From: a virus
Length of the DNA: 46,203 nt
Strand: one strand, 5' to 3'
IMG/VR virus record: IMGVR_UViG_3300005077_000029
Span: 1-46,203 of that record
Under the pieces are notes generated by a model. That model saw only the letters and a list, made by a program, of their open reading frames with translations. It was not told the DNA's origin and ran no database searches. Below, piece by piece: positions 5,681 to 45,015 of this stretch. The first letter of the stretch is position 1, and each line of letters starts with the position of its first letter. The translations under genes were made by a program, and so were the position numbers.

Positions 5681-5931
5681 ACGAGAAGATGAAATTCAAC
5701 GTCCGAGACCTGGGGTATTGCTGTATCTTTGCCTGCCTCATGGCAAACCAACGCGAGAAGGAAGTTGTCCTGGCGGCTGAACTCCGCGTCAACCCCAGGA
5801 CAATTCGTGACTGGCGAAAGCGACTCCGGGACGGCCGGATTACCTGCGAAAAAGCTACTCCGTGTCTATGGCCCCGAAGCTTTCCACTGCCTGTTCATAC
5901 AGCTCCTGATGACTTTTCTGAACAGTCGTGA
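5677..5931 (+). CDS. Small HTH protein
   Basis: 84-aa ORF whose ATG overlaps the upstream stop (ATGA at 5677-5680). HTH-like segment VVLAAELRVNPRTIRDWRKRLRDG. The last 77 nt overlap the 3' end of the convergent giant gene. Confidence 0.6.
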   Translation: MNEKMKFNVRDLGYCCIFACLMANQREKEVVLAAELRVNPRTIRDWRKRLRDGRITCEKATPCLWPRSFPLPVHTAPDDFSEQS

Positions 5932-8900
5932 GTTCCTCCGAAGCCTTGACCGAGCGCTTTCTCGCGGCTTCGGATTGTTGCAGCTTTTTAACGGTGATCT
6001 GTAGGTTTTTACTCGGGACCTTCCGGTTAAATTCCGCAATTGCCTTGTTAACATCAGCAACCGCTTCCCTGTCACGAGCGATAACCTTAGCCTGATAGTA
6101 CGCATCTTTCAACACCTTCTGTCGTGTGGTCCAGTATTCCCGGGCTTCGTACTGCTCCGCTTTGATATTCTGCCCAGCGGACACTGAGGCCGGCTGAAAA
6201 CCCATCGCCTTGCCGACGATTTCCCAGGTTTGGATCTCCCGCATCCGGCCCGTCTTGGCGTCATAAGCAATCAGACCGCCCTGCGGCCCCCGAGCATCTC
6301 GCTCCGCCCATTGAGCCGCTTTGAAGATATTGCCCAGGCCTCCGGGCAATCTTGCCATCTGCTTTCCAGCGACATCGCCCATATCCAGTCCGGCCGTTCC
6401 GGCTTTCGAGAGCGCTCCGATGGTGTCCACCAGCCACTGAATATACCCACCACCAACACCGGAGAGTGCTGTTACACCAGCCCCAATTGCCTCTTTTGCT
6501 GTGCCGTGCTCCTCCGCCAGCACATCGGTTCCAGGTACAAGCCGGCCCTGGCCAATCGACCGGCTTAGATCGAACCCACCGAGGTTGAAAGTAGCCCCAC
6601 GCACCACCTTCATCGGGTCATCTACCCCAACTTCCATCAGCACTTCTCGTAGCGCCGTCCGGGCAGATTTCCCATTGTTGAACTTCTTAAACCCAGCATC
6701 GAGAAGGTCCATTACGTTCTCCATTCCCGGGAGCCCTTCGAGTCCAACAGCCAGAAGGTACAACAGTACCAGCTGTGCCGTATAGCTCCTGTACATCGCG
6801 GGGCTGGCCCGTCCCTCCATAGCCTCTTGCCGGCGCAGGCCAATTTCCAGCCCGCCATAGACGTTCCAGCTCGCATTCTGCACAAACGTCATGAAGATTG
6901 TGATAAAGCTCAGCAGCTTCCCACGCATAATCTGCGGGCGGTTCCCTTTGGTGTAGTCACCCTGCAACAGCCCCACCATCCGCACAGCTTCCTCATACCG
7001 CTCCTTCGGAGTAGCCTCTGGCTTGGTCTGCTGCATCACCTTGTAAGCGCCAACAAAAGTTGCCCGGCGGATCAGGAGCTCCGTCCCCCGGAACAGACTC
7101 ATCCCGGAGTCCACAATTCCCTTGAACACCTTCCCTGGCATACTCCCGCTCGCCATCCGGATCAACTGGCCACGAGTCGCCTGCGTCGCGAGGTAATACG
7201 CATAGCTCTGATCGAGGACGTTTTCGCTCTTCGCTTGCTCAAGGGCGAGACGCAACTCCGTCGGCTGGCCGTCCACCATCTCCCAGTTCGGGTCGGTAAG
7301 AGAAGTCAGTGCGGCCTCAGCGGAACCTGTCATAATCCTCCCGACAGTATCCCCCCACTCATGCGCCTGGGTTCTCACCGCCCCGCCAAATGCCTTGGCA
7401 AAGTTGAATCCCCCTTTCAAGTACCCAAGCTCCCGGTTCATCCAGAGCAAGGTGTGGGCGAGGCCCCAGAAGTTCAGCAGCGCAGTCTTCACACTCCCCC
7501 AGAGATACCCGATCGCCACAACCCCTCGGATGGTGGTGAGTTCCTCCTGCGGGTTCATGGCGTAATTCACCGTAGCCTTCATGAATCCGAGAGCCCGCTC
7601 AATCTCCGATTTGTTCTTCAGGAAGCTCTGATTATCCGGGTCATGCTCCGCCTGTGCAATCGCCATCTGGAGAAGCTTACGGTATTCCATCTTCGCGATG
7701 AAGTTTGCGTTCCGTAGGGCAAAGTCTGCATAGGTCTTGATAAAGTCAGTACTTCCCCCCTCCACCTGGAACCGCATGGGGTTGTAGGCTTTGAGCGGGG
7801 TTTTCTCGTATAACGACTGCATGGCTTCTTTGATCTGGGCCAGCTTCGCCTGGTCCTCCGGGTTCGCGGAGTCCAGCCCCAGGATAACCTCAACGTCATC
7901 GAGGAACTCCACCGGCAACCGCAGGAGCAGACCCTCTTCAGCCGTCCGCACAAAGGACTTCACCGACCCGCCAGGATATTTCGCTCGGGCTTTGAGCTCC
8001 AACTCCCGTGCTTCCCGGTCAGAGTCCGTAGCCCCTTCAAACAAGAGTTCCTTTCCTGCCTCATCGCTCGACCACACCTGCACCACGTTCTTCCCGAAGG
8101 CGGTCTGGGGCCAGAACGGATATCCCCGGAGGACGTTAAACGTCTGCACCACCTCCATGATGCTTTGATTCCGCTTGTCAGTCAGCCCCTCGGCCGCGTA
8201 CTTCTTCGTCCTCAGCCCGATCAGCACCAACCGCATTTCATCTTGCTGTCGCTGCAGCGCGTTCTTCGCCTCGATATAAATCCGGAGGAACCGCTTTCCA
8301 GAGACCGAGTCAGGATCAATCCCGATCTTCCTGATCTCCTCAATCAGCCTTGCCGTTGGGCGGTGCTCCCAATGGTTCTGGTCAACCTTGACAATCTCAG
8401 TCCAGTGTTCCCTTCCGCGATACTCCGCCAGGGTGAACTTCTGCATCCGGGCAAGGTTTTCCTTCCCGAACCATTGGAGCTGCCGCACCACCGCATCAGC
8501 GGGTGAATGCATCAAACCTACTTTCCGATAGAAGGCTTGCATCTCCGCTGCGAAGTTGTGCAGCCAAGTCCACTGAGGGTTCATGTGGGCTATTTGTTGT
8601 AGCTGCAACGCATACCACTGTGCATGGTACACTTTGTTTACAGCATCTGCGAGGACGGGTAATTGGAGTTTCTGCTTCAGTACCTCCCACTTCGTTGCCG
8701 TCTCATGCCCCTCCGGGTCAGTCCGGTCGTAGCGCATTTGGGAGCTTACCGTTCCTTCATGCTTGTAGTCCGGATCATACGTCGCACTTCCCACTCCGAA
8801 TGAAACGTACATCTGGTCCTGGAGCTCCGGCATGTCTACAATCACGCCGTCGTGTCCCTCAGCAATGGCCCGGGAGACATAGCCATCGAGCTCCCCAGGG

Positions 8901-11900
8901 AGAACTGTGTGCCCGCGAGACTCCACCCGCAGGGGGTTGGTAATCCTGGCCCAGCCTGGCAGAATCCGTGTGCGCCCAGCCATCTCCGTCATCGGGCCGG
9001 CCCAGAATAACGCGTGCATATAGTTCTGAAAACCGACCTGAATCTTCTGCCGAGAGCTCGGAGCCTTCATGTCCACTGCCGTATTATACATCAGCGTCAG
9101 GGGTTTCCCGTCAGCCTGGACCACCACAGAGCCCTCGAACCAGTTCTTAAACAGCTCCGATTCCACCCCTTTCAGCCGCCACTCTTTCCGGGCCTTGGCT
9201 TGGCCGATCTTCTCCGCAGGGATACGGTATCCTCGAGTAGTCGTGTCCTTCGCAAGAATCCTTACATCGTTATGGTTGTAGGTGACCACGTTCCAACTGT
9301 TCGTAGCCGGGGCAGGCGGCTTGGCGCCGGGGATATACTTCGGCCCCTTTGACCGCGCTGTATTATTCAGGTACACCACACCCGAGATTCCAACGCTGCT
9401 AAGGATTTTCGAGGCAACCTTGGCGGCCGGAATGGCGGGCTTGTTGCGATCTCTAGTTTTATAGGGGATTCCCTTTTCATAGGCTACCCACGCAACCAGC
9501 TCCCAATAAGCATCCTCCATAGTATTGTTAGGTGGTGCTATTCCCAAAGCTTGTTGAATTTCCTGACTGTACTCTTTTGGCAACTTGGGGTCAGCGGTTG
9601 CTCCATAGGATTTTACAAATGCTGCATCCAACCACGCTCTAAGCCGAGCTGCGGCAACAGAATCCTGAACAGGTGGTAGAAAATGCTGCGCAAACAAAAA
9701 CGGCTCTTTTTTAACCTGATGAGTTTCATTCCCAGCTGTAATAGCATCCCCGTATATAACTTGGACAATCAAATCATTTGGATCGGGCAGTCCATGTACA
9801 TACTGTCCAACATCCGCCTCCGTAAACTTAGAGGGGCTATTCTTCAGCAAATACATAGACAAAAATCCATTCTCATGGCGAATAGCAAGTCCGTGCGCTT
9901 TCAGATAATCCTTTGCAGCGGGAGAGTTGATGCTGGCGAGAAGTTCAGGAACCCCAAGCTGCGCCCGAGGCGTAAAGAACTCCCTGTACCTCTCCGGAAG
10001 CTTCGCCAGCGCCCGCTTCACATAGTCCGACTGATCCTCCCACCCCCAGTCCCACCGAGCGAAAGTATCAAACGGCTTCAGAATCTCAAAGTGCCGAACA
10101 TGGGGCTCTCCGTGGACGTAGCGCAGCTGCGCAGCCTTCACGAAGATCGGAGCGAGGAGCTTTACGTCCAGGTCCAGATCCAAGGTTTGTGCGATAGTCT
10201 CCCTTGCCCGGGCCAGGATCTCGGCTTTTTTGCTCAAATGGTCCTTCAAGGCTTCGCGGTCCAGCCGATCCTGCTCCTTCTTGTCAACCCGACGCACTTC
10301 CGGATTCGGCTTGCTACTGTAAACCACATTCGATATCACAGTATTCACGATATCGTCGAGGTCCAGCTCAGTACTAACAGGGTCCCCGCCGTTTTTCAGC
10401 ATCAGCAGCTCGCGCAGATCCTTGGTATTCGCTTCTTTGAGAATCCGCCTTCCGAGATCAGGTGTACCCCACTCATACCTTCTCCCTTGATAGACCATCT
10501 CATGGGGAGCGGACTGGGCCACATCATACCCAGCATAATGCCGGTAGGTCTTTGCCGCCTCACCAGAGTAGTGCCCCCATCCCTGCCAGATCGTCCCCTC
10601 GCCAGTCCCGATCTTCCGCAGATCCACCTTCCCAAGAGGGTTCTCTGGTGAAATAGTCCAGTTCGCCGTCCCGCCAGACCCGACCACCCAAGCGGGCTGC
10701 CAGCCTTTAAGATCAGCACTTTCCGCCTCGAGGATATCGAACTTAAGCCTTTCGCCGATCAGCGGCTCGATCTTGTTCACAAACTCCTCAAACTGCCCAG
10801 TTTTGAGCAGACCGGCCAGTTCCCTATGCTGCTTGCTGTTGGTCTTGACGACTCCGGTTTCACGAAGATTCTTCAGCGCAGCGGTCAGAACATTCCGGCG
10901 GGCCGGGCTCGTCCAGTCCACCTTCGGCTCATCCACTGGAGCTTCAGTGGCCGCCGTCTTTGCCCCCTTAACCAGGGTGTTTTTGCCCGCTTTATCGTTA
11001 AACTCGGCCGCCCGAAGGGCCAGCTCCTCCATCCAATCCTGTGTACTTTTCCCCGCCTCCACCAGCCCCATTGCGGAGAGCTTCCCGTAGAGCTCTTTCA
11101 GTCGGGCAAGCAACGGGCCAAGGAATTCCTGAATCCTCGCTTCCATCGAGCCAAGGAGGGTATCCGTATCAAAGCTCTTCGCGAACGTTGCATCGAGGAC
11201 CGCGCTCTTACCCAGCCGCTCCTCCGCAAACATCGTCTTCGCAACCTGCTCGGCCAGATACTCATCAAAGCTGAGCTGGTAGTTGATCCCCGCTTTCTGA
11301 GCGAAGCGTTTGGCCGAGAATCCGCCGCCGCCGAAGCCGAACCGCTGACGCATCACCGTCTTGTTTTGCAGCTTTGCCGGGGACAGCCAGCGCATGGCGG
11401 CTTCCCGCCCGCCGATCTTGCCGGTCAGGGTGTCATCCCGCAGAGACCTCCAGTCACTCAGAACCTGCTGCGCGGCAGGAGAGAGTTTCTGCGCGAGTGC
11501 CTCATCATAGGTCCCCTGGGTCAGGGCCAGCCGCATGGCGTTGTATTCCTGCGGGGTCAGCTCGGAGAAGAAAAAATCTTCAATCAGGGTGTGGCCGAAC
11601 TCATGGCCGAGGGAGCTGTACGCATTGACGTTTGCATCGCCTGAGTACTTCCCCGATCCCTTTTTGCTCTTGTGACTTCCAGACTGCTTTTGGTTCGTCA
11701 GATGCCGGGGGATAATGTAGTGCACCCCGTTATGCTTAAAGGAGGCCGCCTGCTCCCGCATCGCATCGCCGGTTACCCCAGTGTCCTCCGGGAGGATAAC
11801 ATACACCCCCTTGGGATTGAACTCGCGGGCCAGCTCATAAATATCCTGCACCACCGCTTTCATATAGTGCGACGGGCGGACGTGGGTATCCTCACCAGCC

Positions 11901-13192
11901 TGGATCACCACCGGCCCGGCAGAGAGATCAAAGTCCAGACTCGAAATCTCCCCGAGAGGTTTATTAACCAGCCCGGACATTCCAAGGGCCCGAACAACCC
12001 TCCGCTCTGACCGGGGAACGGCAGTGTTCTGGTCCTCGAAGTTGTGGGGGTTTCGAAGCACCTCATTCGACATCCCCGTGTCAGCAGCCTGCCGCACATC
12101 CAGCCCCTGAACCAGGTCCGAAAGCGTCTTCTCTACTGGCGGGGGAGTGGGTACGTCAATCTTCTCCCCCAGCGTCGCCCCGGAGTTCAGGCTTTCCTCA
12201 ATCGCGTCAATCAGTGCCTGGTTGCTGGCGATCTCCGTCTGCGTGTCAGTGAAGTTCACCTTGGCAGCCGGAGGGGGAGGTGTCTCGCGGGCCGGCTCAG
12301 TGGTTTCCTCCATAGGTGGTGTGGTTCCCCGGGGATTCCGTTCGATATTCCCCGGGGCATTCATACTATGAATTACAGGTGCCATAACCCCCGTTTGCAT
12401 ACCAGCCTGCAGTCCGGTAACGGCAATATCATGCCCCAATTCCGAGATAAACTGATTAAAGGGTTTATCTGGGGTTACGATTGCCTGCTCTGCAAACTTA
12501 TCGACAATGGTGTTCACTTCCTCACTGGCTATCTCACGACCAAGGGTTTTAGCGACCAGAGCCTTCGTCGATTCCTTTCCGAGTTCGGCAAACAGTTTCC
12601 CCATAGGCATCCACTCTGTAACCGCCTCCATAGGGCCGGAAATATTAGCGTATGCTGAGGCCTCCCCGGGATCAGCTCCCTGATCGGAGGCGGCGCCGTA
12701 CGCACCCTCACGAAACTGAAAAAGCCCCTGCTGAGCCAGTGGTAATGGGTTTCTTGTCACCAGTGACGGTGCCATATTTACCATTGAAGGTGCAACCCCC
12801 ATAGCCGCTTCCATTGGGATAGATGGATTAGGAACCTGCTCTTTGATAGACTGTGTCAGGTGCCCAGTTGCCGCCGCCCAATCATGGGTAATTTGCTGCT
12901 GGTCTAAAATCTTTTTCTGTTGGGCGTCGTACTCAGGAGTACCTGGTGTGTACTGAGTTAAGTCGGCCTGCATCGCATCCAGAAGCTCTTTGTGGGCTCC
13001 ATACTTTGCCCCAGCCAAAGAAGCATCAACACTTTCCCCCATAGTAGAGAAGAGACCCTTAACCCCCTTAACTGAAAGCAGGTCTGTTTGAGGGGGCTCT
13101 AGCTTGTCGATGTCCTCAACAATCCATTCGTCAGGTACATCGTCGGCGTATGTATAAACTTTTCCACTGTTACCCCGAACTTGCTTAACCAT
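5855..13192 (-). CDS. Giant (2445 aa) multidomain virion/ejection protein of the polyvalent-protein type
   Basis: Uninterrupted 7.3-kb ORF with AAAGGAA upstream of ATG 13192; it is the last gene of the structural arm. HExxH motif SLGHEFGHTLIED (His530-His534, nt 11588-11605). Block GISGVVYLNN..SWNVVTYNHNDVRIL (nt ~9240-9391). Block SELFKNWFEGSVVVQADGKPLTLMYNT..GHDGVIVDM (from nt 9160 down to ~8750). Hydrophobic helices in the C-terminal third (e.g. LLSFITIFMTFVQNASW at ~6845-6915, YTAQLVLLYLLAVGL). Confidence 0.85.
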   Translation of the reverse strand: MVKQVRGNSGKVYTYADDVPDEWIVEDIDKLEPPQTDLLSVKGVKGLFSTMGESVDASLAGAKYGAHKELLDAMQADLTQYTPGTPEYDAQQKKILDQQQITHDWAAATGHLTQSIKEQVPNPSIPMEAAMGVAPSMVNMAPSLVTRNPLPLAQQGLFQFREGAYGAASDQGADPGEASAYANISGPMEAVTEWMPMGKLFAELGKESTKALVAKTLGREIASEEVNTIVDKFAEQAIVTPDKPFNQFISELGHDIAVTGLQAGMQTGVMAPVIHSMNAPGNIERNPRGTTPPMEETTEPARETPPPPAAKVNFTDTQTEIASNQALIDAIEESLNSGATLGEKIDVPTPPPVEKTLSDLVQGLDVRQAADTGMSNEVLRNPHNFEDQNTAVPRSERRVVRALGMSGLVNKPLGEISSLDFDLSAGPVVIQAGEDTHVRPSHYMKAVVQDIYELAREFNPKGVYVILPEDTGVTGDAMREQAASFKHNGVHYIIPRHLTNQKQSGSHKSKKGSGKYSGDANVNAYSSLGHEFGHTLIEDFFFSELTPQEYNAMRLALTQGTYDEALAQKLSPAAQQVLSDWRSLRDDTLTGKIGGREAAMRWLSPAKLQNKTVMRQRFGFGGGGFSAKRFAQKAGINYQLSFDEYLAEQVAKTMFAEERLGKSAVLDATFAKSFDTDTLLGSMEARIQEFLGPLLARLKELYGKLSAMGLVEAGKSTQDWMEELALRAAEFNDKAGKNTLVKGAKTAATEAPVDEPKVDWTSPARRNVLTAALKNLRETGVVKTNSKQHRELAGLLKTGQFEEFVNKIEPLIGERLKFDILEAESADLKGWQPAWVVGSGGTANWTISPENPLGKVDLRKIGTGEGTIWQGWGHYSGEAAKTYRHYAGYDVAQSAPHEMVYQGRRYEWGTPDLGRRILKEANTKDLRELLMLKNGGDPVSTELDLDDIVNTVISNVVYSSKPNPEVRRVDKKEQDRLDREALKDHLSKKAEILARARETIAQTLDLDLDVKLLAPIFVKAAQLRYVHGEPHVRHFEILKPFDTFARWDWGWEDQSDYVKRALAKLPERYREFFTPRAQLGVPELLASINSPAAKDYLKAHGLAIRHENGFLSMYLLKNSPSKFTEADVGQYVHGLPDPNDLIVQVIYGDAITAGNETHQVKKEPFLFAQHFLPPVQDSVAAARLRAWLDAAFVKSYGATADPKLPKEYSQEIQQALGIAPPNNTMEDAYWELVAWVAYEKGIPYKTRDRNKPAIPAAKVASKILSSVGISGVVYLNNTARSKGPKYIPGAKPPAPATNSWNVVTYNHNDVRILAKDTTTRGYRIPAEKIGQAKARKEWRLKGVESELFKNWFEGSVVVQADGKPLTLMYNTAVDMKAPSSRQKIQVGFQNYMHALFWAGPMTEMAGRTRILPGWARITNPLRVESRGHTVLPGELDGYVSRAIAEGHDGVIVDMPELQDQMYVSFGVGSATYDPDYKHEGTVSSQMRYDRTDPEGHETATKWEVLKQKLQLPVLADAVNKVYHAQWYALQLQQIAHMNPQWTWLHNFAAEMQAFYRKVGLMHSPADAVVRQLQWFGKENLARMQKFTLAEYRGREHWTEIVKVDQNHWEHRPTARLIEEIRKIGIDPDSVSGKRFLRIYIEAKNALQRQQDEMRLVLIGLRTKKYAAEGLTDKRNQSIMEVVQTFNVLRGYPFWPQTAFGKNVVQVWSSDEAGKELLFEGATDSDREARELELKARAKYPGGSVKSFVRTAEEGLLLRLPVEFLDDVEVILGLDSANPEDQAKLAQIKEAMQSLYEKTPLKAYNPMRFQVEGGSTDFIKTYADFALRNANFIAKMEYRKLLQMAIAQAEHDPDNQSFLKNKSEIERALGFMKATVNYAMNPQEELTTIRGVVAIGYLWGSVKTALLNFWGLAHTLLWMNRELGYLKGGFNFAKAFGGAVRTQAHEWGDTVGRIMTGSAEAALTSLTDPNWEMVDGQPTELRLALEQAKSENVLDQSYAYYLATQATRGQLIRMASGSMPGKVFKGIVDSGMSLFRGTELLIRRATFVGAYKVMQQTKPEATPKERYEEAVRMVGLLQGDYTKGNRPQIMRGKLLSFITIFMTFVQNASWNVYGGLEIGLRRQEAMEGRASPAMYRSYTAQLVLLYLLAVGLEGLPGMENVMDLLDAGFKKFNNGKSARTALREVLMEVGVDDPMKVVRGATFNLGGFDLSRSIGQGRLVPGTDVLAEEHGTAKEAIGAGVTALSGVGGGYIQWLVDTIGALSKAGTAGLDMGDVAGKQMARLPGGLGNIFKAAQWAERDARGPQGGLIAYDAKTGRMREIQTWEIVGKAMGFQPASVSAGQNIKAEQYEAREYWTTRQKVLKDAYYQAKVIARDREAVADVNKAIAEFNRKVPSKNLQITVKKLQQSEAARKRSVKASEELTTVQKSHQELYEQAVESFGAIDTE
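12327..12357. repeat. 31-bp CCCCGGGG dyad element, intragenic copy
   Basis: CCCCGGGGattc-cgttcga-TATTCCCCGGGG; same 12+7+12 geometry as the intergenic copies. It lies in the Pro/Thr-rich linker (..NAPGNIERNPRGTTPP..) of the giant gene. Confidence 0.7.
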
Positions 13193-28159: not shown

Positions 28160-28192
28160 GCCCCGGGGAATACTACACATATTCCCCGGGGC
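28160..28192 (-). terminator. Perfect 13-bp-stem hairpin (31-bp dyad element) after the capsid gene; terminator or mRNA stabiliser
   Basis: GCCCCGGGGAATA-ctacaca-TATTCCCCGGGGC. On the minus-strand transcript it is followed by CTTTTC, then AAGGAG and ATG 28141. Confidence 0.7.
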
Positions 28193-30536: not shown

Positions 30537-32431
30537 GCTGTTGCCCCCATGTTAGGAACCTGCATCTGCGCAGGCGGACGTCCAAGATCATCTTGATTCC
30601 CTATCGGAACCATGTTACCAGCCTGTGCCTGGGTGGCAAGATCCGCTGGGTCCATAAGCTGCATTTTGAACTGCTGCAGGTTCTTCAGCCCCGCCAGACT
30701 CGCAACCCAAGCGAAGATCCGCCCGAAGTCATACTGCGAGGCGACCTGCGGCACCTTAGCCATCTGCGACATCATCTGTTGCCACAGGTTCGCCTGGGCA
30801 AATCTATCCACCGGCATACTCCCATCCACCGGAACGAAGTCATAGAACCCGGCAATACTCATCGGGTCTACCTTAGCAAACCCCGGGCTGAAGGCGGCCA
30901 GATCCCCAACAATACGGAATTTCTGCTCCCCGGTGTAGAACTGTTGCGTACCGCTGATCAGCTTCTGGGTCAGCGGCCCCCAGCCCATCGCGGAGAAGAA
31001 CTCGCAGTTTGTCTTCAGCCGGTTGATGCCGAATGTAGTGGACTGGCGCACTTCGGTAGCTGTTTTCCGCCCGCCAGCATTCACCATCCCCATTACGTTG
31101 TCAGTGACCCCCGTTACCCGCTGAATCATGTCGGCCATAAGCTGCATGTTCGGCACGTGCGCCTGGGTGACATCAGCCACGGGAAGCTGGGCAAACATCG
31201 TCCTGATATCCCGACCAAACCCGGCTGGTTTCAGCCTGATCAACTTCCCGGGATCGCGGGACTCAAAATCCTTCATCACGAACATGCTAGGGTCCGCAAT
31301 GAATTGGTTGTTCAGCGCTGCCCGCACATTGAACATGTGAGAGTTCACTAGCCAAGTCATGGCATCGTTCAAAGGCGCCATAACCTCCATCATGGACCTG
31401 GTGAAGAGGTTGTATGCATCGGGCTCCTGCTCGAGCACGTCAACCGGGAAGCGGTTGTGGAAGAGTCCGAGGGGTCTGGCCCCGAAGAGTTTATAGCTCC
31501 CCGTTGTCATAGTGAACACCCAGATCTCCAACCTGTCCCCGTCCGCCAGCTTCCATTCCCTTGGGATGATCTTGATGTAGACCTCGTAAGCCTTCACCAG
31601 TCCAGGAACCTCCTGATGAAAATACTCGAGATCCTCCCCGGGAAGCTCTGAGGTAACCCCACCGTGGTCACGCTCACTGCGATCAAACCCCGCATCTTGG
31701 AGCATTTCGATGTCGAAGTACTCCCCCGCTTCCTTACCAGTCAGCAGGTCGGACCGGGAAAGCTCAACATAACGGCCGAAGAATTCCCCTTCCTGGAAGT
31801 TCCACAGAGTCACCCGCGGGTCAGGATAAGCATCCTGCGGGCGGATGTTGAAAAGCTTATGCCCAACATAGCCTGGCACGTCAACGACATCCTCAGCCCA
31901 CTCTTCCGTTCCCGGAATAGGCATCCCGAGGAACATCTTAGGCCGTTGAACCCGCAGGCGAGCGCGCACTTTCTCCTCCCGCCAGTACGACCCGATCCAG
32001 CCCACGCTGTACTTAATCGGGTCGAAGAGCCAGAGGAACAGCGGGACCAGGTTCTGCCCTACTTGGAGCTGGTAGTCCAAGATTGCCTCAATTGACTGGA
32101 CCTGCTGCTCTGACTCCCCATGCCGCCCAGACACCTGCAGGATAGGATTCCTCGCGAGGAATACGGAGGTGAAGTAAGTATGCGCGGTCATTGCGACGGC
32201 GTAGCTATACGGCACCGCAATGGTAGTGTACTCCGGCTCCCCCAAATCCCGCTTCTGCTTCCGCAGAGAATCCGCAGTGCTCTCGGGGATATACGCTCTG
32301 AACTGGTCCTCGTTCTCCGCCCACTGTTTATGGCGCTGCCCCATTTTTCCGCGGGACAGATCAATCCTGGCCCGACACTCGCGAGAGATTATCTCTGCAG
32401 CTGCTTTTCCAGGTCTAAATTTCACGGACAT
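30533..32431 (-). CDS. Portal protein
   Basis: 632-aa ORF directly after TerL (10-nt overlap); size and position are typical of a portal. Confidence 0.75.
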   Translation of the reverse strand: MSVKFRPGKAAAEIISRECRARIDLSRGKMGQRHKQWAENEDQFRAYIPESTADSLRKQKRDLGEPEYTTIAVPYSYAVAMTAHTYFTSVFLARNPILQVSGRHGESEQQVQSIEAILDYQLQVGQNLVPLFLWLFDPIKYSVGWIGSYWREEKVRARLRVQRPKMFLGMPIPGTEEWAEDVVDVPGYVGHKLFNIRPQDAYPDPRVTLWNFQEGEFFGRYVELSRSDLLTGKEAGEYFDIEMLQDAGFDRSERDHGGVTSELPGEDLEYFHQEVPGLVKAYEVYIKIIPREWKLADGDRLEIWVFTMTTGSYKLFGARPLGLFHNRFPVDVLEQEPDAYNLFTRSMMEVMAPLNDAMTWLVNSHMFNVRAALNNQFIADPSMFVMKDFESRDPGKLIRLKPAGFGRDIRTMFAQLPVADVTQAHVPNMQLMADMIQRVTGVTDNVMGMVNAGGRKTATEVRQSTTFGINRLKTNCEFFSAMGWGPLTQKLISGTQQFYTGEQKFRIVGDLAAFSPGFAKVDPMSIAGFYDFVPVDGSMPVDRFAQANLWQQMMSQMAKVPQVASQYDFGRIFAWVASLAGLKNLQQFKMQLMDPADLATQAQAGNMVPIGNQDDLGRPPAQMQVPNMGATA

Positions 32432-33882
32432 ACTCCAATTCGAATAGGTTCATAGCCAAGTTCTTCCTCGTCCTCGTATACAGAATACTCCCCCTCGATT
32501 TCCCTGGCCGCCGGGTTGATGCTGGTGTAGGCCATGGCTAATGCATCGAGAAGGTCATCATGCATAGATTTGTCATCAGGCGCGTATGTGTCCATCTGGT
32601 TAATCAGTTCATGCATCGAGGGCTTGAGGTACAAACACCCCATATGTACAAGGCCGGGAAGGGCCTGCAGGATTCGGTCAGACTTTTTCCGCTGGTCCTG
32701 GATAGCATCAATCGGGAGGAAAGTGCGACGGCGAAGCATCTCCTGCTCGAGATACCATTTCAGCACCCGCTGGTATGCAATGCTTTCCACCGCAGCTTTA
32801 CGGGGCCGATAGCGCCAGACAAACTCAAAGAAGCGCGCTGCAACTGCGTCTGGCATTACCCCCCGCTCGGAGTAGTAATCCAGCACATACACATTCGTTC
32901 CGTAAAACCCCACCGCCATGACTACGTTATAGTCTGCGGTTTTGGAATCGCTCGACGCGGGGTCGATAGCAATCACCACGATCATGTTATCTGGAAGGAC
33001 GTCCCAATACTGCAGCCTGGTGACGTCGAAGTGGGTATCTTCGCCAGCAACTAACTGGCACTCCATCTCCCGCATCCAGAGCTGGTATTGCCTCCGCAGA
33101 ATCGCGGACTCTTTATCCTTCAGCAACTGTTCCGTCGGAAACCGCTCTTCCCAGCGGCTCTTGCCCGTCTCGTCGAAAATCCCGAACCGCAGGCCGTGCC
33201 ACTGCGGGTCAACCATACACTTCTCCACCACGTCATCCCGGTTCAGGGGGGTCTGCAGCAGCACCGCTTTCGCGTGGGGAGCTTCACTTGTTGGGGCCAG
33301 GGAGTTCAGCAAAGCCCCAAAAAACAGTTCCTCAATCTTCTTCCGCTGCTCCGTAGTAGCGGTGTTTTCCTCGTTCAGGATATCGTCGGCAATGATAAGG
33401 TCTGGCCGGTAATCGTCCAGGTTGAATCCGCGGATCTGGCCCGTGATACCCATAGCCATCACGGTAATCGGGACTTCATCTATCCCATGGATTATTTCAA
33501 TAATCTCATCAGTCCACTTACTCCCCCGCTGGAGTTGAAAGGTCGAGGCGAGCGGGACGTTGTGGACAACCTGACGCTTCAGCCATCGAATTGAGTGAAC
33601 CGCGTGAGCTTGTGAAACCGAGATATACATCACCGTGCGGGAGATGGCGTAGGCTACTCGCTGCATGGTGAAGGTGCGGAGAAGGGAAGTCTTTGCCCCA
33701 CCCCGAAAGACCTCGAAAGCATTAAAGCGCGAGGGACCGTAAAGGGCTTGCCCGATAGCGTCGTGGAACTCCGGGGAGCTCTGCCGGAACGTCCGAGGAA
33801 GAAAGATCCGCCCAAAATTGCGCAAGCCAACCGCGCCGAGTTTCACGGCTTCGCGAGGGTCAATGGGGATCTGCTGGATCAC
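32422..33882 (-). CDS. terL: Terminase large subunit
   Basis: 486-aa ORF with a GTG start (AAGG 7 nt upstream). Walker A-like FRGGAKTS, Walker B-like DLIIADDILNEE, nuclease-domain block VIAIDPASSDSKTADYNVVMAVG..DAL. Confidence 0.85.
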   Translation of the reverse strand: MIQQIPIDPREAVKLGAVGLRNFGRIFLPRTFRQSSPEFHDAIGQALYGPSRFNAFEVFRGGAKTSLLRTFTMQRVAYAISRTVMYISVSQAHAVHSIRWLKRQVVHNVPLASTFQLQRGSKWTDEIIEIIHGIDEVPITVMAMGITGQIRGFNLDDYRPDLIIADDILNEENTATTEQRKKIEELFFGALLNSLAPTSEAPHAKAVLLQTPLNRDDVVEKCMVDPQWHGLRFGIFDETGKSRWEERFPTEQLLKDKESAILRRQYQLWMREMECQLVAGEDTHFDVTRLQYWDVLPDNMIVVIAIDPASSDSKTADYNVVMAVGFYGTNVYVLDYYSERGVMPDAVAARFFEFVWRYRPRKAAVESIAYQRVLKWYLEQEMLRRRTFLPIDAIQDQRKKSDRILQALPGLVHMGCLYLKPSMHELINQMDTYAPDDKSMHDDLLDALAMAYTSINPAAREIEGEYSVYEDEEELGYEPIRIGVCP

Positions 33883-33927: not shown

Positions 33928-34389
33928 TCACGGCCTCCAGATATGCACACCAAAGCCCCGGCCCGCCCACTCTGCTGGACTTGCCACAAGTTCGACCGGC
34001 TCGGGGCAGACAATAAGCGGATCATACCACTTCACAATCTCGAGTATTGCAACCGGTTTGCCAAAAAGATACTCGAGCAGGGGGGCGTAAACGAGCCGAA
34101 GCTGCTCCCAGGCCCCGGGAGTATGTTGGTATTTAACCTCGACCAGAAGAACTCTTTCTCCAAGGTCCACATACCCATCGGGCTGACACCACCGAGGCCC
34201 GGCGTCGTCGGAGAATTGAATCCACTGATTAGCACACCACTGTGGAAATATTCCGCGGAGGTAACCATGGACGAGTCGTTCATACTTCACACCCTGAAGT
34301 TTTCGCCCCCTGGGCCGGGATTGTTTGAGCTTCGGGGGAGGGGAGGGACTGAGCCTCACCCACTTCAAGTTCCGGACTGGGACTCGCAT
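33928..34389 (-). CDS. PD-(D/E)xK-fold nuclease
   Basis: 153-aa ORF with motif QPDGYVDLGERVLLVEVKYQ (D..E-x-K). ATG 34389 (GGGAG upstream) overlaps the TerS-like gene by 110 nt; a GTG near 34290 is an alternative start. Confidence 0.6.
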   Translation of the reverse strand: MRVPVRNLKWVRLSPSPPPKLKQSRPRGRKLQGVKYERLVHGYLRGIFPQWCANQWIQFSDDAGPRWCQPDGYVDLGERVLLVEVKYQHTPGAWEQLRLVYAPLLEYLFGKPVAILEIVKWYDPLIVCPEPVELVASPAEWAGRGFGVHIWRP

Positions 34390-34918
34390 TTACAGCTCCC
34401 GCAATGACGGTGCTCCGCGCCTCGGCCAGTTCCGACGCGGAGACGCTAACAAAAACTTGCTGCACCGGCCCCGGCCCGGGGGAACGGGCAGACGTCGGGG
34501 CATACCCGAGCCGATGGAGAGCCTTATCGAAGACATCAATTGCCACCTCCGGGGACTCCGTCTCCGACACAATCTGGCTGACCTTTTCAATCGCCAGGTC
34601 CGCAAGCCCACGAAGCTTTGCCGGAATGTCCTGAGCCACGTGGAGAAAGACCTCCCGGTGCTTGGCCTGGAGTTCTTGCTGGAAAAGGTCCGAGTGGATC
34701 AAGCGGGACAGCCAGGGCTGGGAATACCCGAAGGAGTCTGCGCATTCTCGGAGCGACTTCTCTGGGTTAGCAATGAGCCAGTTCATGACTGCCTCATGCG
34801 TGTGGGAAAGGCGGGCGATGGCCTGGTCCGGCGGGCGGGCAAGGCGCTCAGCGATTTCGGGGGGAAGGGCCGGGTTCTCCATGGGCCGGAGTATATGCCG
34901 CCGGGCGGACCGGCGCAA
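34280..34918 (-). CDS. HTH protein, putative terminase small subunit
   Basis: First gene of the late arm. The start is TTG 34918 or ATG 34882. HTH-like SLRECADSFGYSQPWLSRLI. Function is inferred from its position next to TerL. Confidence 0.5.
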   Translation of the reverse strand: MRRSARRHILRPMENPALPPEIAERLARPPDQAIARLSHTHEAVMNWLIANPEKSLRECADSFGYSQPWLSRLIHSDLFQQELQAKHREVFLHVAQDIPAKLRGLADLAIEKVSQIVSETESPEVAIDVFDKALHRLGYAPTSARSPGPGPVQQVFVSVSASELAEARSTVIAGAVNASPSPELEVGEAQSLPSPEAQTIPAQGAKTSGCEV

Positions 34919-34942
34919 GGGGAGCTTTGGGGCGTGTTATTT

Positions 34943-34950
34943 CCCCGGGG
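34943..34950. promoter_or_regulatory. Single CCCCGGGG core in the late-arm leader
   Basis: tttCCCCGGGGattttc, 25-60 nt upstream of the candidate starts of the first late gene. Confidence 0.5.
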
Positions 34951-35024
34951 ATTTTCACAATTGCTTGCAGCGCCGCTGGTGGCTTTCCCCCCTACATACC
35001 GCACGATCAGGGGGGGTGGGTGGG

Positions 35025-35053
35025 TTGCATTCAGGTGGACGACATGCGATAAT
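35025..35053 (+). promoter_or_regulatory. Sigma70-type promoter P1 (early arm)
   Basis: TTGCAT (35025-35030), 17-nt spacer, GATAAT (35048-35053). Confidence 0.65.
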
Positions 35054-35057
35054 ACCA
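35049..35057 (-). promoter_or_regulatory. Possible extended -10 promoter for the late arm
   Basis: The minus strand reads TGgTATTAT (reverse complement of 35049-35057) and overlaps the -10 of P1; no good -35 is present. Confidence 0.3.
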
Positions 35058-35060
35058 CTC

Positions 35061-35083
35061 AATGCCATGTGACAGGTGGCATT
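35061..35083. promoter_or_regulatory. 7-bp inverted repeat (operator-like) just downstream of P1
   Basis: AATGCCA-n9-TGGCATT. Confidence 0.4.
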
Positions 35084-35140
35084 ATGGGGTGTTACCCTAA
35101 CCGCGCCGGGACGGTCTACCCGGATTGAATGGAGAGTGCT

Positions 35141-35617
35141 ATGAAAAAGCAAAGTATCGACTGGGTGAAAGACGACACGATTGAAATCAAGTACGGCAAC
35201 GGCTTGGTATTCACAGGCGATTGTCTTGATCTACCCGAGGATATCTACCAGCCCTGCGCCGCAGCCCGGCACGGGATTGCCCAGAAGCTGGGCGATGCGA
35301 AATCCGGTGGAACGGCTGCGGAGAAACATGCCGAGGTGGTGGAGATTTGGGCAAGCCTTCTGGGTAATGCCTGGAACCGTCGCGCCACCGGAGCAGGGGT
35401 TGAAGCCTTGATCGAACGGGCTTATGCCATCCTGGCCGGGAAGGCCGGGCAACCCGAGGCCCAGGCCGAGGTATGGTATGAGCAGTACCTGGAAATGGAC
35501 GAGGCGAAGCGGGAAATGGTCCGGGCGAAACCCTTCATGAAGGCCGCGATTGAAGCGGCCAGGGCCGAACGGAAGCTCGGTGGGACGACAACCGAAGAGT
35601 TCAATCCGAACGCGTAA
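35141..35617 (+). CDS. Early protein, paralog A (ends ..EEFNPNA)
   Basis: ATG 35141 is preceded by GGAGAG (35131-35136). It shares LPE[DE]I, HG[IL]xQKLGDA, W..L.G.W and a C-terminal [EQ]EF[ND]PNA with 36876..37418. A canonical terminator follows. Confidence 0.75.
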   Translation: MKKQSIDWVKDDTIEIKYGNGLVFTGDCLDLPEDIYQPCAAARHGIAQKLGDAKSGGTAAEKHAEVVEIWASLLGNAWNRRATGAGVEALIERAYAILAGKAGQPEAQAEVWYEQYLEMDEAKREMVRAKPFMKAAIEAARAERKLGGTTTEEFNPNA

Positions 35618-35634
35618 CCCCAGCGCAAACCCCC

Positions 35635-35658
35635 AGCCCGGCTTCGGCCGGGTTTTTT
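35635..35658 (+). terminator. Intrinsic terminator
   Basis: gcccggc-ttcg-gccgggt stem-loop (TTCG tetraloop) followed by T6 at 35653-35658. Confidence 0.85.
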
Positions 35659-35673
35659 CTTTCCACCCCGGGC

Positions 35674-35721
35674 CTGCAGTAGGGCGCTCGAGCCGTCCCG
35701 CCGCTGCAGTAGGGCGCTCGA
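35674..35721. repeat. Two 18-bp perfect direct repeats, 30-bp period
   Basis: ctgcagtagggcgctcga at 35674-35691 and 35704-35721. Confidence 0.9.
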
Positions 35722-35729
35722 CCGAGAAG

Positions 35730-36198
35730 CAAATTTCCCGGGCCGGTTCCCCGGTGTTCCCCCCGATTTCCCTCTAGGCTCCCCCTAGTTCAGTTCCCCC
35801 GGTGTACCCCCGGAGTAGGTGGTAGTAGGTGGAAAGACGCCGTAGGTGCCTAGTTCGGGTTACCCCCCTCTCTCTAGATCCCCGGGGATATTTACCCGGG
35901 GAATCCCCACCCTAATCCCCGGGGACTTTCAGCCTCACCCTCTCAGCTCCCTAGTTCCCCGGGGATCTACCGTTCTTTCTTTTAAATATTTTTTTTAGTA
36001 AAAAGACATACGGATCGGAATATCGGGAGACTGGGCCACCCACACAAATTTCCCCGGGGATAGAAAGAGAGGGGGTTTCCCCTACCTACGTATCTACGGC
36101 ACCTTACCACCTACTACCACCTACTACCGCAAACGCCGGGGGGACACGGGGGGCACCGAGGGCTCCCACACCGGGGGAACACCGGCCCGGGAGATTTG
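35730..36198. promoter_or_regulatory. Large modular imperfect palindrome with iterons, CCCCGGGG cores and AT-rich centre (candidate origin or regulatory hub)
   Basis: The left arm (35730-35893) and the reverse complement of the right arm (36046-36198) share ordered blocks: caaatNtcccgggccggt, ttccccc-ggtgt, GGTAGTAGGT tandem 10-mers (35811-35832 vs 36107-36128), gccgtag, ccccctctct, atCCCCGGGGa. CCCCGGGG cores start at 35880, 35917, 35957 and 36052. AT-rich tract at 35974-36010. Confidence 0.6.
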
Positions 36199-36207
36199 AA
36201 ACTGGAC

Positions 36208-36236
36208 TTGCAATACTCACATCGGGGGGTTATAAT
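36208..36236 (+). promoter_or_regulatory. Sigma70-type promoter P2
   Basis: TTGCAA (36208-36213), 17-nt spacer, TATAAT (36231-36236). Confidence 0.7.
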
Positions 36237-36294
36237 GCAACGGAAATGTCCACCCGTAGCACCACCCGCAGTTAACACCTTAAAGGAGAATGAA

Positions 36295-36789
36295 ATGCCG
36301 AGATCGAATAATATTGCAGCTTACCCGGAGCAGCTTTTCGCAGTTGCACACGCAGTGAGGGATACGAGAAGGCCAGTGGAGATTGAGCTCTCAACGGAGA
36401 AGGAGGTGGAATATCTACGAATGCAGTGGTACGGGTTTCTCAACGCTTATACAAAGCAGAGTGGGGATGAAAGCATCCGGGCAGTAATGTGTGCGCGGCT
36501 GGCACCGGCTCGGACTGGAGAGTCCTGGAGGCTACGGTTCTCGCACCGGGACACACCGCCGACGATGCAGGCGCTCGGACGTGCTCTGGCGGCCGCGCTC
36601 CAGTCCACTCCTCAGGACACCCGTCCACCCGAGGGTCCACCCGCCAGTCCACCCGCAGCTCAACCCCCAGTCTACCACCACCCCAGGCTGCCCGAGTCCC
36701 CACTTGCCCGCGCAGAGGCGTCGGAGGAATTCGAGGCGGCGATCGATGCGTGGCTGGGCGCGGACGGAGCGAATGAAAAAAGTTCTTGA
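36295..36789 (+). CDS. Hypothetical 164-aa protein with Pro-rich C-terminal half
   Basis: ATG 36295 with AAGGAG 7 nt upstream; the upstream TTG 36196 in the ORF track lies inside the promoter and palindrome. Confidence 0.65.
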   Translation: MPRSNNIAAYPEQLFAVAHAVRDTRRPVEIELSTEKEVEYLRMQWYGFLNAYTKQSGDESIRAVMCARLAPARTGESWRLRFSHRDTPPTMQALGRALAAALQSTPQDTRPPEGPPASPPAAQPPVYHHPRLPESPLARAEASEEFEAAIDAWLGADGANEKSS

Positions 36790-39188: not shown

Positions 39189-39217
39189 TTGACAAACTGG
39201 TCCCCGGGGAATACCAT
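39189..39217 (+). promoter_or_regulatory. Sigma70-type promoter P4 overlapping a dyad element
   Basis: TTGACA (39189-39194), 17-nt spacer ending tCCCCGGGGAA, TACCAT (39212-39217). Confidence 0.6.
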
Positions 39218-39232
39218 ATATATTCCCCGGGG
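39202..39232. repeat. 31-bp CCCCGGGG dyad element, perfect copy
   Basis: CCCCGGGGAATA-ccatata-TATTCCCCGGGG. Confidence 0.9.
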
Positions 39233-39283
39233 CATTCCGCCCTCACTGTGCCGGGTCAGTCCATACCCGATTAGGAGCAAAGC

Positions 39284-44746: not shown

Positions 44747-44777
44747 CCCCGGGGAATACGCAACCGCATCCCCGGGG
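44747..44777. repeat. 31-bp CCCCGGGG dyad element, degenerate right arm
   Basis: CCCCGGGGAATA-cgcaacc-gcatCCCCGGGG followed by cttt; lies between the nuclease stop and the next RBS. Confidence 0.75.
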
Positions 44778-44796
44778 CTTTCATAGGAGCCGTACC

Positions 44797-45015
44797 ATGT
44801 CAACTATCAGCATCCGCATCCATTTCGACTACGAAGACATCACCATTGACAGAGCCGATCTTATCCAGTGGCTTGATGACGACGGGGAAGACCTCGACGG
44901 CGACGAGACCGACGAGGAACTCCTGGCTATGCTTTCCGAGGGGAACATCTCCGAGTTCGCGGAAAACTACGCTAACTGCCCCGACGCGATCCGTGCTGAG
45001 GTAGCCACAGAATGA
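44797..45015 (+). CDS. Highly acidic 72-aa protein
   Basis: AGGAG (44785-44789) upstream; 22 Asp+Glu against 3 Arg by my count (..WLDDDGEDLDGDETDEELL..); ATGA overlap with the Sak4-like gene. Confidence 0.65.
   Translation: MSTISIRIHFDYEDITIDRADLIQWLDDDGEDLDGDETDEELLAMLSEGNISEFAENYANCPDAIRAEVATE

Follow-up and report, generated by a model that had tools for sequence, protein, structure and literature searches.

What is the function of the 677 nt of non-coding DNA at positions 35618-36294 of the window, the whole 46,203-nt stretch of viral DNA analysed here? Cis-acting sites (origins, packaging sites and ends) are almost never annotated in the genomes of uncultured phages, and a first-pass annotation had singled out this region as a transcriptionally insulated hub that fits a replication origin, with a centromere-like ParB site, a packaging site or a regulatory hub as alternatives. 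We found that the gap is, as that annotation held, the largest non-coding stretch on the gene map (the runner-up gaps are 308, 263 and 246 nt) and that every feature listed for it is present in the sequence, in place or displaced by a few bases. It is a genuine insulated cis-acting hub, not filler, with a terminator on its left (35635-35661) and a promoter on its right (36208-36236). The hub and its surroundings contain the following features.

32422..33882, minus strand: large terminase gene (phrog_38 terminase large subunit, E 7.8e-65), 1.7 kb from the hub
34280..34882, minus strand: small-terminase-like gene, 200 aa, encoding an N-terminal helix-turn-helix and then long helices
34937..34950, no strand: palindrome box ATTTCCCCGGGGAT in the divergent intergenic region 34883-35128, an exact copy of 36047-36060
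35129..35617, plus strand: gene for a conserved 162-aa protein, its transcript ending at the hub's left edge
35635..35661, plus strand: intrinsic terminator of upstream gene 35129..35617, stem 35635-35654, T tail to about 35661
35667..35721, plus strand: two direct repeats, CTGCAGTAGGGCGCTCGA, at 30-bp spacing, on the left side only
35730..35893, no strand: left arm, with outer block 35730-35747 and inner block ACCCCCCTCTCTCTAGATCCCCGGGGAT
35746 and 35793: left-arm boxes GTTCCCC(C)GGTGT
35814-35833: left-arm tandem, two copies of AGTAGGTGGT
35894..36045, no strand: asymmetric core
35915-35926 and 35955-35966: core palindromes TCCCCGGGGA
35972-36010: pyrimidine and A+T-rich tract of the core, with T8 at 35989-35996 and then AGTAAAAAGACATACGG
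36046..36198, no strand: right arm, the inverted left arm, with palindrome box 36047-36060 and outer block 36181-36198
36105-36124: two copies of TACCACCTAC in the right arm
36133-36185: right-arm ACRCCGGGGGRAC boxes
36208..36236, plus strand: sigma-70-type early promoter, TTGCAA-17-TATAAT, 10/12 matches
36295..36789, plus strand: first early gene, 164 aa, with ribosome-binding site AAGGAG 7 nt upstream and ATG at 36295

The dominant feature of the hub is the long imperfect inverted repeat formed by its two arms. When the left arm is aligned with the reverse complement of the right arm, 122 of 168 columns match (73%), 19 columns are gaps and an ungapped core of 80 nt reaches 81%. The self-complement score of the hub is 98, as compared to 26.1 ± 5.0 (maximum 56) for 300 dinucleotide shuffles, and the second-ranking genomic window of 677 nt scores 44; the repeat stands at z ~14-18 against shuffles, and the genome has no other inverted repeat of more than 31 nt with arms at most 1 kb apart. 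The terminator to its left has an 8-bp stem with six G-C pairs, a loop of 4 and a T tail, and the right arm ends 9 nt before the -35 hexamer of the promoter. The two 18-bp direct repeats CTGCAGTAGGGCGCTCGA are exact at 35674 and 35704, occur nowhere else in the genome and can be extended to 25 nt at 88% identity. The short repeats of the arms measure 8-12 bp, with two tandem copies per arm in inverted arrays, and most arm motifs are confined to the hub locus within the genome. The tandem 10-mers need a change of register: two tandem copies of AGTAGGTGG(T/A) lie at 35814-35833 and their right-arm counterpart occurs twice at 36105-36124, whereas the exact word first proposed, GGTAGTAGGT, occurs only once on the plus strand (35821) and twice on the minus strand (36109 and 36119). 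TTCCCC(C)GGTGT is present at 35747 and 35794 and inverted at 36168, the three motifs reported before, and two further degenerate inverted copies lie at 36133-36158. The four CCCCGGGG cores are at 35880, 35917, 35957 and 36052, against a background of 13 copies genome-wide where simple arithmetic from base composition leads us to expect about 2; one of them does lie near the symmetry axis, since the paired-block midpoints (35964-35987) adjoin the palindrome at 35955-35966. The tract at 35974-36010 is 86% A+T (32/37, including T8) in a genome of 57% G+C.

Every relative open to examination has the same layout at the syntenic place, contrary to any suggestion that the region is missing or unstructured in close relatives. 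At least 12 relatives have it with a significant inverted repeat and four more have a looser form; they share an order that runs from the terminator through the left repeats, the T-run core and the inverted right repeats to the promoter and the first early gene. Significant inverted repeats (z 4-20) surround the T-run in Mel-JY34, MW202489, VS-ABTNL-3, L011, L013, L014, L015, L017, L019 and L065, and the layouts of L083, L086 and L094 were judged by eye. Most relatives have an equivalent terminator. Conservation across relatives is highest in the T-run core: the T-run and a CTAAGA-like motif align and are conserved in L094, L086, L013 and L092 and are present in all relatives. The closest relatives keep the T-run/CTAAGA core, the promoter, which aligns with TTGACT/TTGACA-17-TATAAT in L094 and L086, and a GGCGCTCGA repeat pair, which is found at the equivalent place in L094 and L086 and in degenerate form in L013. 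The arm repeats, in contrast, are lineage-specific, and a fixed syntenic architecture with changing arm sequences is what one expects where a recognition site and its binder evolve together. In L014 and VS-ABTNL-3 the core is flipped relative to its flanks, which fits a symmetric, orientation-independent function rather than a promoter or terminator. Kuura, Tiera and the PaP2-like phages share only inverted short motifs and the T-run with the hub, and their long inverted repeat falls short of significance when aligned (z < 2). The hub is thus a real, strongly structured element whose layout is conserved across a family of short-tailed phages.

Could such an element be a MITE-like insertion, an invertible switch, a telomere-resolution site or a gene for a long-hairpin RNA? 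The flipped core of two relatives is in keeping with these ideas, as are the outermost 18-nt inverted repeats, which are 94% complementary, and the predicted fold of the single strand into a long hairpin (-131.7 kcal/mol, z -11.5). Against mobility, the element is single-copy, its edges at 35729/36199 have no target-site duplication, its DNA finds no match in the phage collection and it keeps one fixed syntenic place throughout the family; we therefore rejected a MITE. A telRL site, the target of a protelomerase, is an almost perfect palindrome with the resolution point at its centre, accompanied by a protelomerase gene. The centre of the hub is non-palindromic, and no protelomerase, transposase or invertase was found among the proteins scanned, so that a telRL site was rejected as well. 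A hairpin-forming element was also set aside in spite of the strong predicted fold: the arms are only 71-86% complementary and their matching blocks are split by unmatched spacers, the pattern of protein sites and not of a maintained helix. An RNA gene finds no backing in Rfam, where nothing reached the gathering score and the sole match at E <= 1 was the terminator itself; the hub holds no tRNA, and a promoter scan inside the inverted-repeat element gave no promoter-like site. No close relative aligns along the arms, which leaves no material for a covariation analysis. Taken together, these data make any mobile or structured-element reading highly improbable.

A regulatory role would have operator arrays controlling the early promoter, or silencing or partitioning the genome in a carrier or pseudolysogenic state, with CCCCGGGG as the operator of a genome-wide regulator. 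The distribution of CCCCGGGG gives this idea some substance: the palindrome recurs in pairs with 23-bp spacing at four other sites and is also found once in the divergent promoter region, and one pair overlaps a TTGACA promoter-like site. The right arm's position only 9 nt from the -35 hexamer is suggestive in the same way, and relatives form turbid plaques, carry a putative repressor (Kuura; PMC9959647) or persist as episomes (Shea; PMC13348215). However, most arm motifs are unique to the hub locus, 450 bp separate the left arm from any promoter, and the arms lie upstream of the promoter, not over it. CCCGGG is absent in L011, L014 and L083 (13-16 kb examined) despite the shared architecture, so the palindrome is not essential to the hub element. 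We consider a regulatory hub very unlikely. The proposal of a centromere for the ParB-domain protein fared poorly too. A ParB/parS centromere consists of clustered palindromes served by a ParB with a helix-turn-helix (HTH) domain and usually by a ParA partner. The genome does encode a ParB_N-domain protein, a point that also favours a regulatory hub, but its ParB_N is fused to a DNA methyltransferase, with no HTH detected; this fusion is the sole ParB_N domain, and no ParA partner was found, among the proteins scanned. As for parS-like palindromes, the hub has four of 10-12 bp, and they are not confined to it, with nine more CCCCGGGG cores lying elsewhere.

The replication-origin reading has more in its favour. 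A bidirectional origin would have an initiator bind the head-to-head arrays, the T-rich core melt and two helicases load in opposite directions, the DUF3987 primase-helicase-like protein being a candidate helicase. The origin-like part of the first-pass description stands, in that the A+T tract (86%) does lie in a G+C-rich genome between symmetric, phased short repeats found only here. The T-run core is the part that relatives conserve best and it flips without loss, as expected of a symmetric unwinding element, and the operon that begins at the hub or continues from there encodes a helicase, an exonuclease, a Sak4-like protein, PolA and DUF3987. The episomal state of the PaP2-like relative Shea agrees with an origin, and cumulative GC skew turns near the element in FBPa48 and VS-ABTNL-3. 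These skew turns, however, coincide with turns in gene orientation, so the signal is confounded; in the window, skew is negative almost throughout and has no inflection at the hub, the detrended extremes lying at 42.4 and 14.0 kb. In iteron theta origins such as lambda ori and plasmid oriV, a cognate initiator, encoded at or beside the origin, binds several direct repeats about 17-22 bp long, and DnaA boxes are present in many cases. The hub repeats are short, at 8-11 bp, and in two to five copies, unlike these classical iterons, no TTATCCACA DnaA box with at most one mismatch was found in 35618-36294, and family and PDB searches gave no recognisable initiator-like protein next to the hub. To our knowledge, head-to-head arrays that load two helicases over an unwinding core are known from archaeal and eukaryotic-virus origins and not from tailed phages. 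A further point against an origin is that a mapped DNA end falls within the equivalent element of Kuura, although an origin is compatible with the hub also adjoining a genome end. We regard a bidirectional origin as possible but on the whole unlikely; if the hub is an origin, it would be an unusual, symmetric one for a tailed phage.

The surroundings of the hub point towards packaging, as no other large non-coding stretch lies near the packaging genes. At E <= 1e-20, the large terminase has relatives in the phage collection only in Mel-JY34 (46.6%), Vibrio phage VS-ABTNL-3 (38%) and Kuura (26.5%). The small-terminase-like gene starts 0.75 kb from the hub with one other gene between, and its product matches a Mel-JY34 homologue (E 7e-12) that has the same position upstream of the nuclease and large terminase; the genes in the corresponding position of Kuura and Tiera are annotated as small terminase. 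This protein has no match in Pfam. Its AF2 model (pLDDT 74.5) has three short helices followed by a helix at 65-107, and its best PDB match is a weak one to the nine-chain phage protein 2ao9 (E 0.014). It is the first candidate for a binder of the hub sites; the repeats bracket the core symmetrically near the terminase genes, as putative binding and cut sites might. However, the HTH region is nearly invariant among its 61 homologues while the arm repeats differ between lineages, which argues against this protein being the reader of the variable repeats. A correction to the gene map extends the minus-strand block to 34882, so that a single plus-strand gene (35129-35617) separates the divergent point from the hub. 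The divergent intergenic region shares only the 14-nt palindrome box with the hub, and their similarity is in modest excess over shuffles (score 28 against 20.5 ± 2.3). The 162-aa product of the plus-strand gene has no Pfam, PHROG or PDB match; it has 32 homologues, including a clear one at the equivalent position of L086 (alignment score 511, most positions identical) and a Mel-JY34 counterpart in the corresponding position (26% identical). The first early gene on the other side is a positional orthologue across relatives with weak homology to its L086 counterpart; its product has no family match, and a protein-database search returns only itself. The hub-flanking orphan proteins have no relative in IMG/VR. 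As regards the host, the single genome match, a 46.5-kb contig, was binned with a Bdellovibrio MAG and is unreliable as host evidence.

Kuura, a Caulobacter phage, is the only relative with mapped ends, and its 606-bp direct terminal repeat was mapped by PhageTerm (PMC9959647); we confirmed an exact repeat in the sequence record. The inner boundary of this terminal repeat lies inside the hub-equivalent element, 56 nt from a T12 run, with a TTGACA promoter and the first early gene following closely downstream. Copies of AACTGCCC flank it at +34 and +107 and inverted copies at -135 to -171, with only three other copies in 43 kb. Kuura is distant from the studied phage (26.5% terminase identity and 24.5% primase identity). 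The linear GenBank records of PaP2 and 119X both open at the same point of the equivalent region, 33 nt from the T-run; FBPa48 and 20Aug470, which are Illumina assemblies, are contiguous across this break, and the PaP2/119X breaks could be convention or a gap left by an unclonable palindrome. For Shea, a PaP2-like phage, 'terminally redundant ends' were reported by PhageTerm (PMC13348215), and a literature search on the ends of Mel-JY34, PaP2 or 119X found nothing. We rejected contig ends as a proxy for physical ends. The contigs L072, L080 and L077 stop in or at the T-run at differing homopolymer points, so an assembly artefact is possible, and those of other relatives end at varied places within the element; ends so scattered or homopolymeric do not show a fixed end there. 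A tighter cluster just upstream of the small-terminase-like gene (~34937-34950 equivalent) comes from non-independent samples and could reflect module shuffling. The studied genome is a circular assembly whose 99-bp overlap lies elsewhere than at the hub, so we infer the ends of this phage from its relatives only.

With the one experimental anchor in the family, the Kuura boundary, pointing to it, the packaging alternative becomes our preferred reading, with the qualification that Kuura-type ends in the studied phage are predicted from relatives. We tentatively propose, at a little short of even chances, that the hub is the cis-acting element of the genome-end (concatemer-junction) region that is recognised and cut for packaging, in the manner of the T7 left end. 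One boundary of a terminal repeat would be located at the hub. A sequence-specific DNA-binding protein would fill the lineage-specific short repeats of both arms and, as these are about one helical turn apart and head-to-head, a symmetric nucleoprotein complex would bracket the core. The large terminase would then cut at the easily melted or bent T-rich core, by analogy with Kuura at around 35.93 kb, some tens of bases left of the T-run. The terminal repeat would extend leftward toward the terminase genes, with its other boundary perhaps near the palindrome at ~34.94 kb; the early promoter right of the hub would come to lie close to the early-gene end of the packaged DNA, and the left terminator would keep transcription out of the hub. 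A conserved 30-40-bp A+T tract is not obviously needed by a terminase site, whereas it is needed by an origin. One symmetric hub might do both, acting as a bidirectional origin and as the terminase entry and cut site, with initiation coupled to end formation and a core invertible via arm recombination; this combination we judge improbable.

The hub architecture (terminator, lineage-specific arm, poly-T core, inverted arm and early promoter) appears to mark a cis-acting site family-wide. If the link to the genome end is true, the physical ends, the packaging direction and the first-injected genes would become predictable from sequence alone, and there would be defined DNA targets against which to test binding by the small terminase, by the DUF3987 protein and by the orphan early proteins. 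Such a prediction would cover widespread podophages from freshwater and sediment and of Pseudomonas, Caulobacter, Vibrio and Microcystis.

Several known systems have parts of this arrangement. Inverted initiator sites around an A+T-rich spacer are found in herpes simplex oriS/oriL, in the SV40 core origin and in archaeal ORB-flanked origins. The hub resembles these, and the iteron origins of lambda and plasmids, as a single-copy element with head-to-head short repeats around an A+T-rich tract; it differs in that no initiator was found for it, its repeats are shorter than classical iterons, it has no skew signal or DnaA boxes, and a DNA end is mapped in its Kuura equivalent. The left end of T7 carries short-repeat arrays and a secondary origin. 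In T3 and T7 the left-end terminal repeat is followed by host promoters A0-A3 and phiOL, and the concatemer junction is where packaging begins; in T7, replication-type functions such as phiOL coexist there with packaging functions (PMC3276506). Like these ends, the hub is a non-coding stretch at the boundary of the packaging-gene end and the early genes, with short-repeat arrays and an A+T-rich stretch immediately before strong host-type early promoters (36208 and 36786, inside the predicted end), and the element carries a terminal-repeat boundary, which is shown in Kuura only. In contrast to T7 and T3, the proteins scanned include no phage RNA polymerase and phage promoters were likewise not found, the repeats form a long inverted pair around a poly-T core that is absent from T7, and the terminal repeat of the studied phage is only predicted. 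At SPP1 pac (pacL-pacC-pacR) and lambda cos (cosQ-cosN-cosB), the cleavage region lies between repeated small-terminase sites, with intrinsically bent or A-tract DNA, near the terminase genes. The hub differs from these in having flanking sites that are genuine inverted copies of about 160 bp and in its distance of 0.75 kb, with another gene between, from the small-terminase-like gene; it shares with them a tripartite logic in which repeats, here putative sites, flank a central region near the terminase genes.

All features that the first-pass annotation had listed in the 677-nt non-coding region at 35618-36294 (hereafter the element) were located in the sequence. In a palindrome analysis, the left arm (35730-35893) and the right arm (36046-36198) align with 122 of 168 columns matching; the inverted-repeat score is 98, as compared to 26 ± 5 in dinucleotide shuffles and 44 for the second-best 677-nt window of the genome, and the genome contains no second inverted repeat of more than 31 nt with arms at most 1 kb apart. 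Whole-genome searches found the arm motifs only in the element; the CCCCGGGG palindrome is not confined to it (13 copies, four in the element). The symmetry axis (35964-35987) adjoins the palindrome at 35955-35966 that had been placed near it, and a T-rich tract begins immediately to the right of the axis, so that the 152-bp core is itself asymmetric. A single strand of the element is predicted to fold strongly. Because the arms are built of matching blocks with spacers and carry lineage-specific repeats, their sequence points to arrays of protein-binding sites rather than a maintained hairpin.

The same 99 bases open and close the window, a complete phage genome of 46,203 bases that was assembled as a circle. 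The early and replication block lies on the + strand; it starts at about 35.1 kb, crosses the window end and stops at 5.9 kb, and it encodes a UvrD-type helicase, a dUTPase, a PD-(D/E)XK exonuclease, a Sak4-like ATPase, a ParB_N-N6/N4 methyltransferase (852-2138), a UDG-PolA fusion and a DUF3987 'primase'. The structural and packaging block, which includes the major capsid protein and portal, occupies the – strand, starting at 34,882 and ending at 5,855. The raw ORF list suggested a different gene map, which we corrected; the divergent point and the element are separated by a single gene, 35129-35617 on the + strand.

Genes of the structural and packaging block near the element
32422-33882, – strand, large terminase
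33928-34389, – strand, nuclease
34280-34882, – strand, 200-aa small-terminase-like gene, last of the block

We read the 200-aa gene as a putative small terminase because its product is homologous to that of the same-place gene of Microcystis phage Mel-JY34, its helix-turn-helix segment is nearly invariant among 61 homologues, its structure model has a three-helix unit at the N terminus and then long helices, and its top structural match, a weak one, is the nine-chain phage protein 2ao9. The 162-aa protein of 35129-35617, of unknown function, is conserved and invariably encoded between the small-terminase-like gene and the element; almost all of its 32 homologues are on contigs shorter than 2.7 kb, and contigs with the adjacent small-terminase-like gene tend to be longer. 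At the other end, a 2445-aa ORF (5855-13192, – strand) closes the structural block; its C-terminal third matches PHROGs, all of unknown function, with no other matches, and its position is held by 1350-1900 aa homologues in Mel-JY34, PaP2, Tiera and Kuura. The source annotation starts the first early gene at ATG 36235 (184 aa), overlapping the –10 hexamer; the RBS fits ATG 36295 (164 aa; to 36789). The 9-mer GTCCACCCG is found once in the leader (36248), near the related CACCACCCG (36260), and three times in the coding region of this gene (36623, 36635, 36647), where it encodes a proline-rich repeat.

Since the element region has no DNA match in the phage collection and the flanking proteins are near-orphans, we used the primase, the terminases and the upstream gene to search for relatives, and then inspected the syntenic locus of each one. 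Every relative examined (Mel-JY34, MW202489 and Vibrio phage VS-ABTNL-3; IMG/VR and metagenome contigs L011, L013, L014, L015, L017, L019, L065, L083, L086 and L094) has the same order: a terminator closing the upstream gene; a left arm that is C-rich and contains short repeats in tandem; a core in which 8 to more than 27 T stand in a row, in most cases with a CTAAGA-like motif after them; a G-rich right arm in which the repeats are inverted; a promoter of the sigma-70 type; and the first early gene. A looser form of this order is present in Pseudomonas phages 119X, PaP2 and FBPa48, Polaromonas phage Tiera and Caulobacter phage Kuura. Among nearer relatives the inverted repeat reaches statistical significance (z 4-20); it does not in Tiera, the PaP2 group and Kuura, where short inverted motifs and the T-run alone remain. 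L083 (JBJTMR010000011.1; 46,551 bp), the sole match in the species-genome collection, is phage-genome-sized and carries the element; it is binned into a Bdellovibrio sp. MAG and its terminase is 58% identical, weak evidence of host at best.

The arm repeats vary by lineage, and strictly tandem copies have a period of 8-12 bp, approximately one helical turn.

Arm repeats by lineage
Window: AGTAGGTGGT
L065: GGGATCAAGAA
L011: GGCGTGGTAGGC
MW202489: CTGCCATTTCC
L014: CAATCTAT
Kuura: AACTGCCC

Among the closest alignable relatives (L094, L086, L013, L092) the arms fail to align; the aligned parts are the left-edge pair of GGCGCTCGA repeats, the core GTTCTTTTTTTAT..TTTTTTTTCTAAGAA..ACA.ATACGG and the promoter. 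Relative to its flanks, the core of L014 and VS-ABTNL-3 is inverted, which argues that function is independent of core orientation with respect to the genes; such a flip would be the product expected of recombination between inverted arms.

The first-pass annotation had preferred a replication origin, and the anatomy, an A+T-rich core between symmetric repeats, fits one. The further checks do not support it: GC skew is negative nearly everywhere in this genome with no turn at the element, a search of the element found no DnaA boxes, and nearby gene products include no recognisable initiator. In two relatives skew does turn near the element, where gene orientation turns too.

A packaging and genome-end element fits the same anatomy, and we tentatively favour this reading because of the only experimental anchor (Kuura), the breaks in the PaP2 and 119X records and a T3/T7-like layout. 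Kuura, one of three phage-collection relatives of the window's large terminase at E ≤ 1e-20, has PhageTerm-mapped ends with a 606-bp direct terminal repeat (PMC9959647), and we found the exact repeat in its record. The inner boundary lies 56 nt from a T12 run and is flanked by two copies of AACTGCCC (+34, +107) and three to four inverted copies (–135 to –171), an 8-mer with only three further copies in the Kuura genome; the other boundary is 144 nt upstream of the small terminase gene. Separately, Tiera and Kuura each have a perfect or near-perfect 72-73-bp tandem duplication on the terminase side of the element (L061 43928-44071; L062 34-174); in Kuura it falls right at the beginning of the terminal repeat. 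The PaP2 and 119X records each begin within their equivalent core, across which sister-phage Illumina assemblies are contiguous with nothing missing; a PaP2-like phage reportedly has terminally redundant ends and persists as an episome (PMC13348215). At the T3/T7 left end, a terminal repeat is followed by host promoters and phiOL, and the concatemer junction is the packaging start (PMC3276506); the layout of the element matches. By analogy with Kuura, a cut is predicted near 35.93 kb and the terminal repeat would extend leftward to about 34.94 kb, where we found an exact 14-nt duplicate of the palindrome box.

Several relatives' contigs (L003, L007, L009, L093, L095-L099) begin or end approximately 20-150 nt upstream of the small-terminase-like gene (window equivalent ~34900-34950); L097, L098 and L099 share an identical start base, and the starts of L095 and L096 differ by 4 nt. 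These contig ends may reflect a physical end of the DNA (the second boundary of the terminal repeat) or else a boundary of a module or of recombination.

Against the genome-end reading, Kuura is a distant relative, the PaP2 and 119X breaks may be conventions or cloning gaps, contig ends within the element are scattered or in homopolymers, and an origin accounts better for the conserved unwinding-type tract. Moreover, the small terminase helix-turn-helix is conserved while the arm repeats vary, so the arms may be read by another protein.

A regulatory or partition hub, as suggested by palindromes spread genome-wide and a right arm close to the promoter, is unlikely; CCCGGG is absent from the examined stretches of relatives with the same architecture. 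This motif has 43 copies in the window, 5-8 in 3-5 kb contigs of the closest relatives and none in 13-16 kb of L011, L014 and L083, indicating motif use in one lineage and restriction-site-like avoidance in others. A mobile element, a telomere site and an RNA gene are effectively excluded for the element. The genome also has four near-identical double palindromes, CCCCGGGGAATA-N7-9-TATTCCCCGGGG, potential 12-bp-stem hairpins.

Double palindromes
12327-12358
28161-28192
39202-39233
44747-44778

Of these, three lie between genes (one follows the major capsid gene, one follows a TTGACA promoter-like site and one precedes the gene at 44797), and the fourth falls within the 2445-aa ORF. L094 and L086 carry this double palindrome too, at the left edge of their homologous element. 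Possible roles are as operators, processing sites or attenuators.

Taken together, the chief value of the element is as a sequence signature of the ends or origins of metagenomic phage genomes, and it also supplies a defined set of targets for studying binding. Cis sites that are A+T-rich and flanked by repeats are already known from phage origins and ends. Our literature searches found no description of paired long inverted arrays of lineage-specific repeats around a conserved poly-T core, and to our knowledge such arrays at one fixed syntenic place in a broad, mostly uncultured podophage group are undescribed. Origin and genome-end functions are not mutually exclusive; in T7, both are near the left end.
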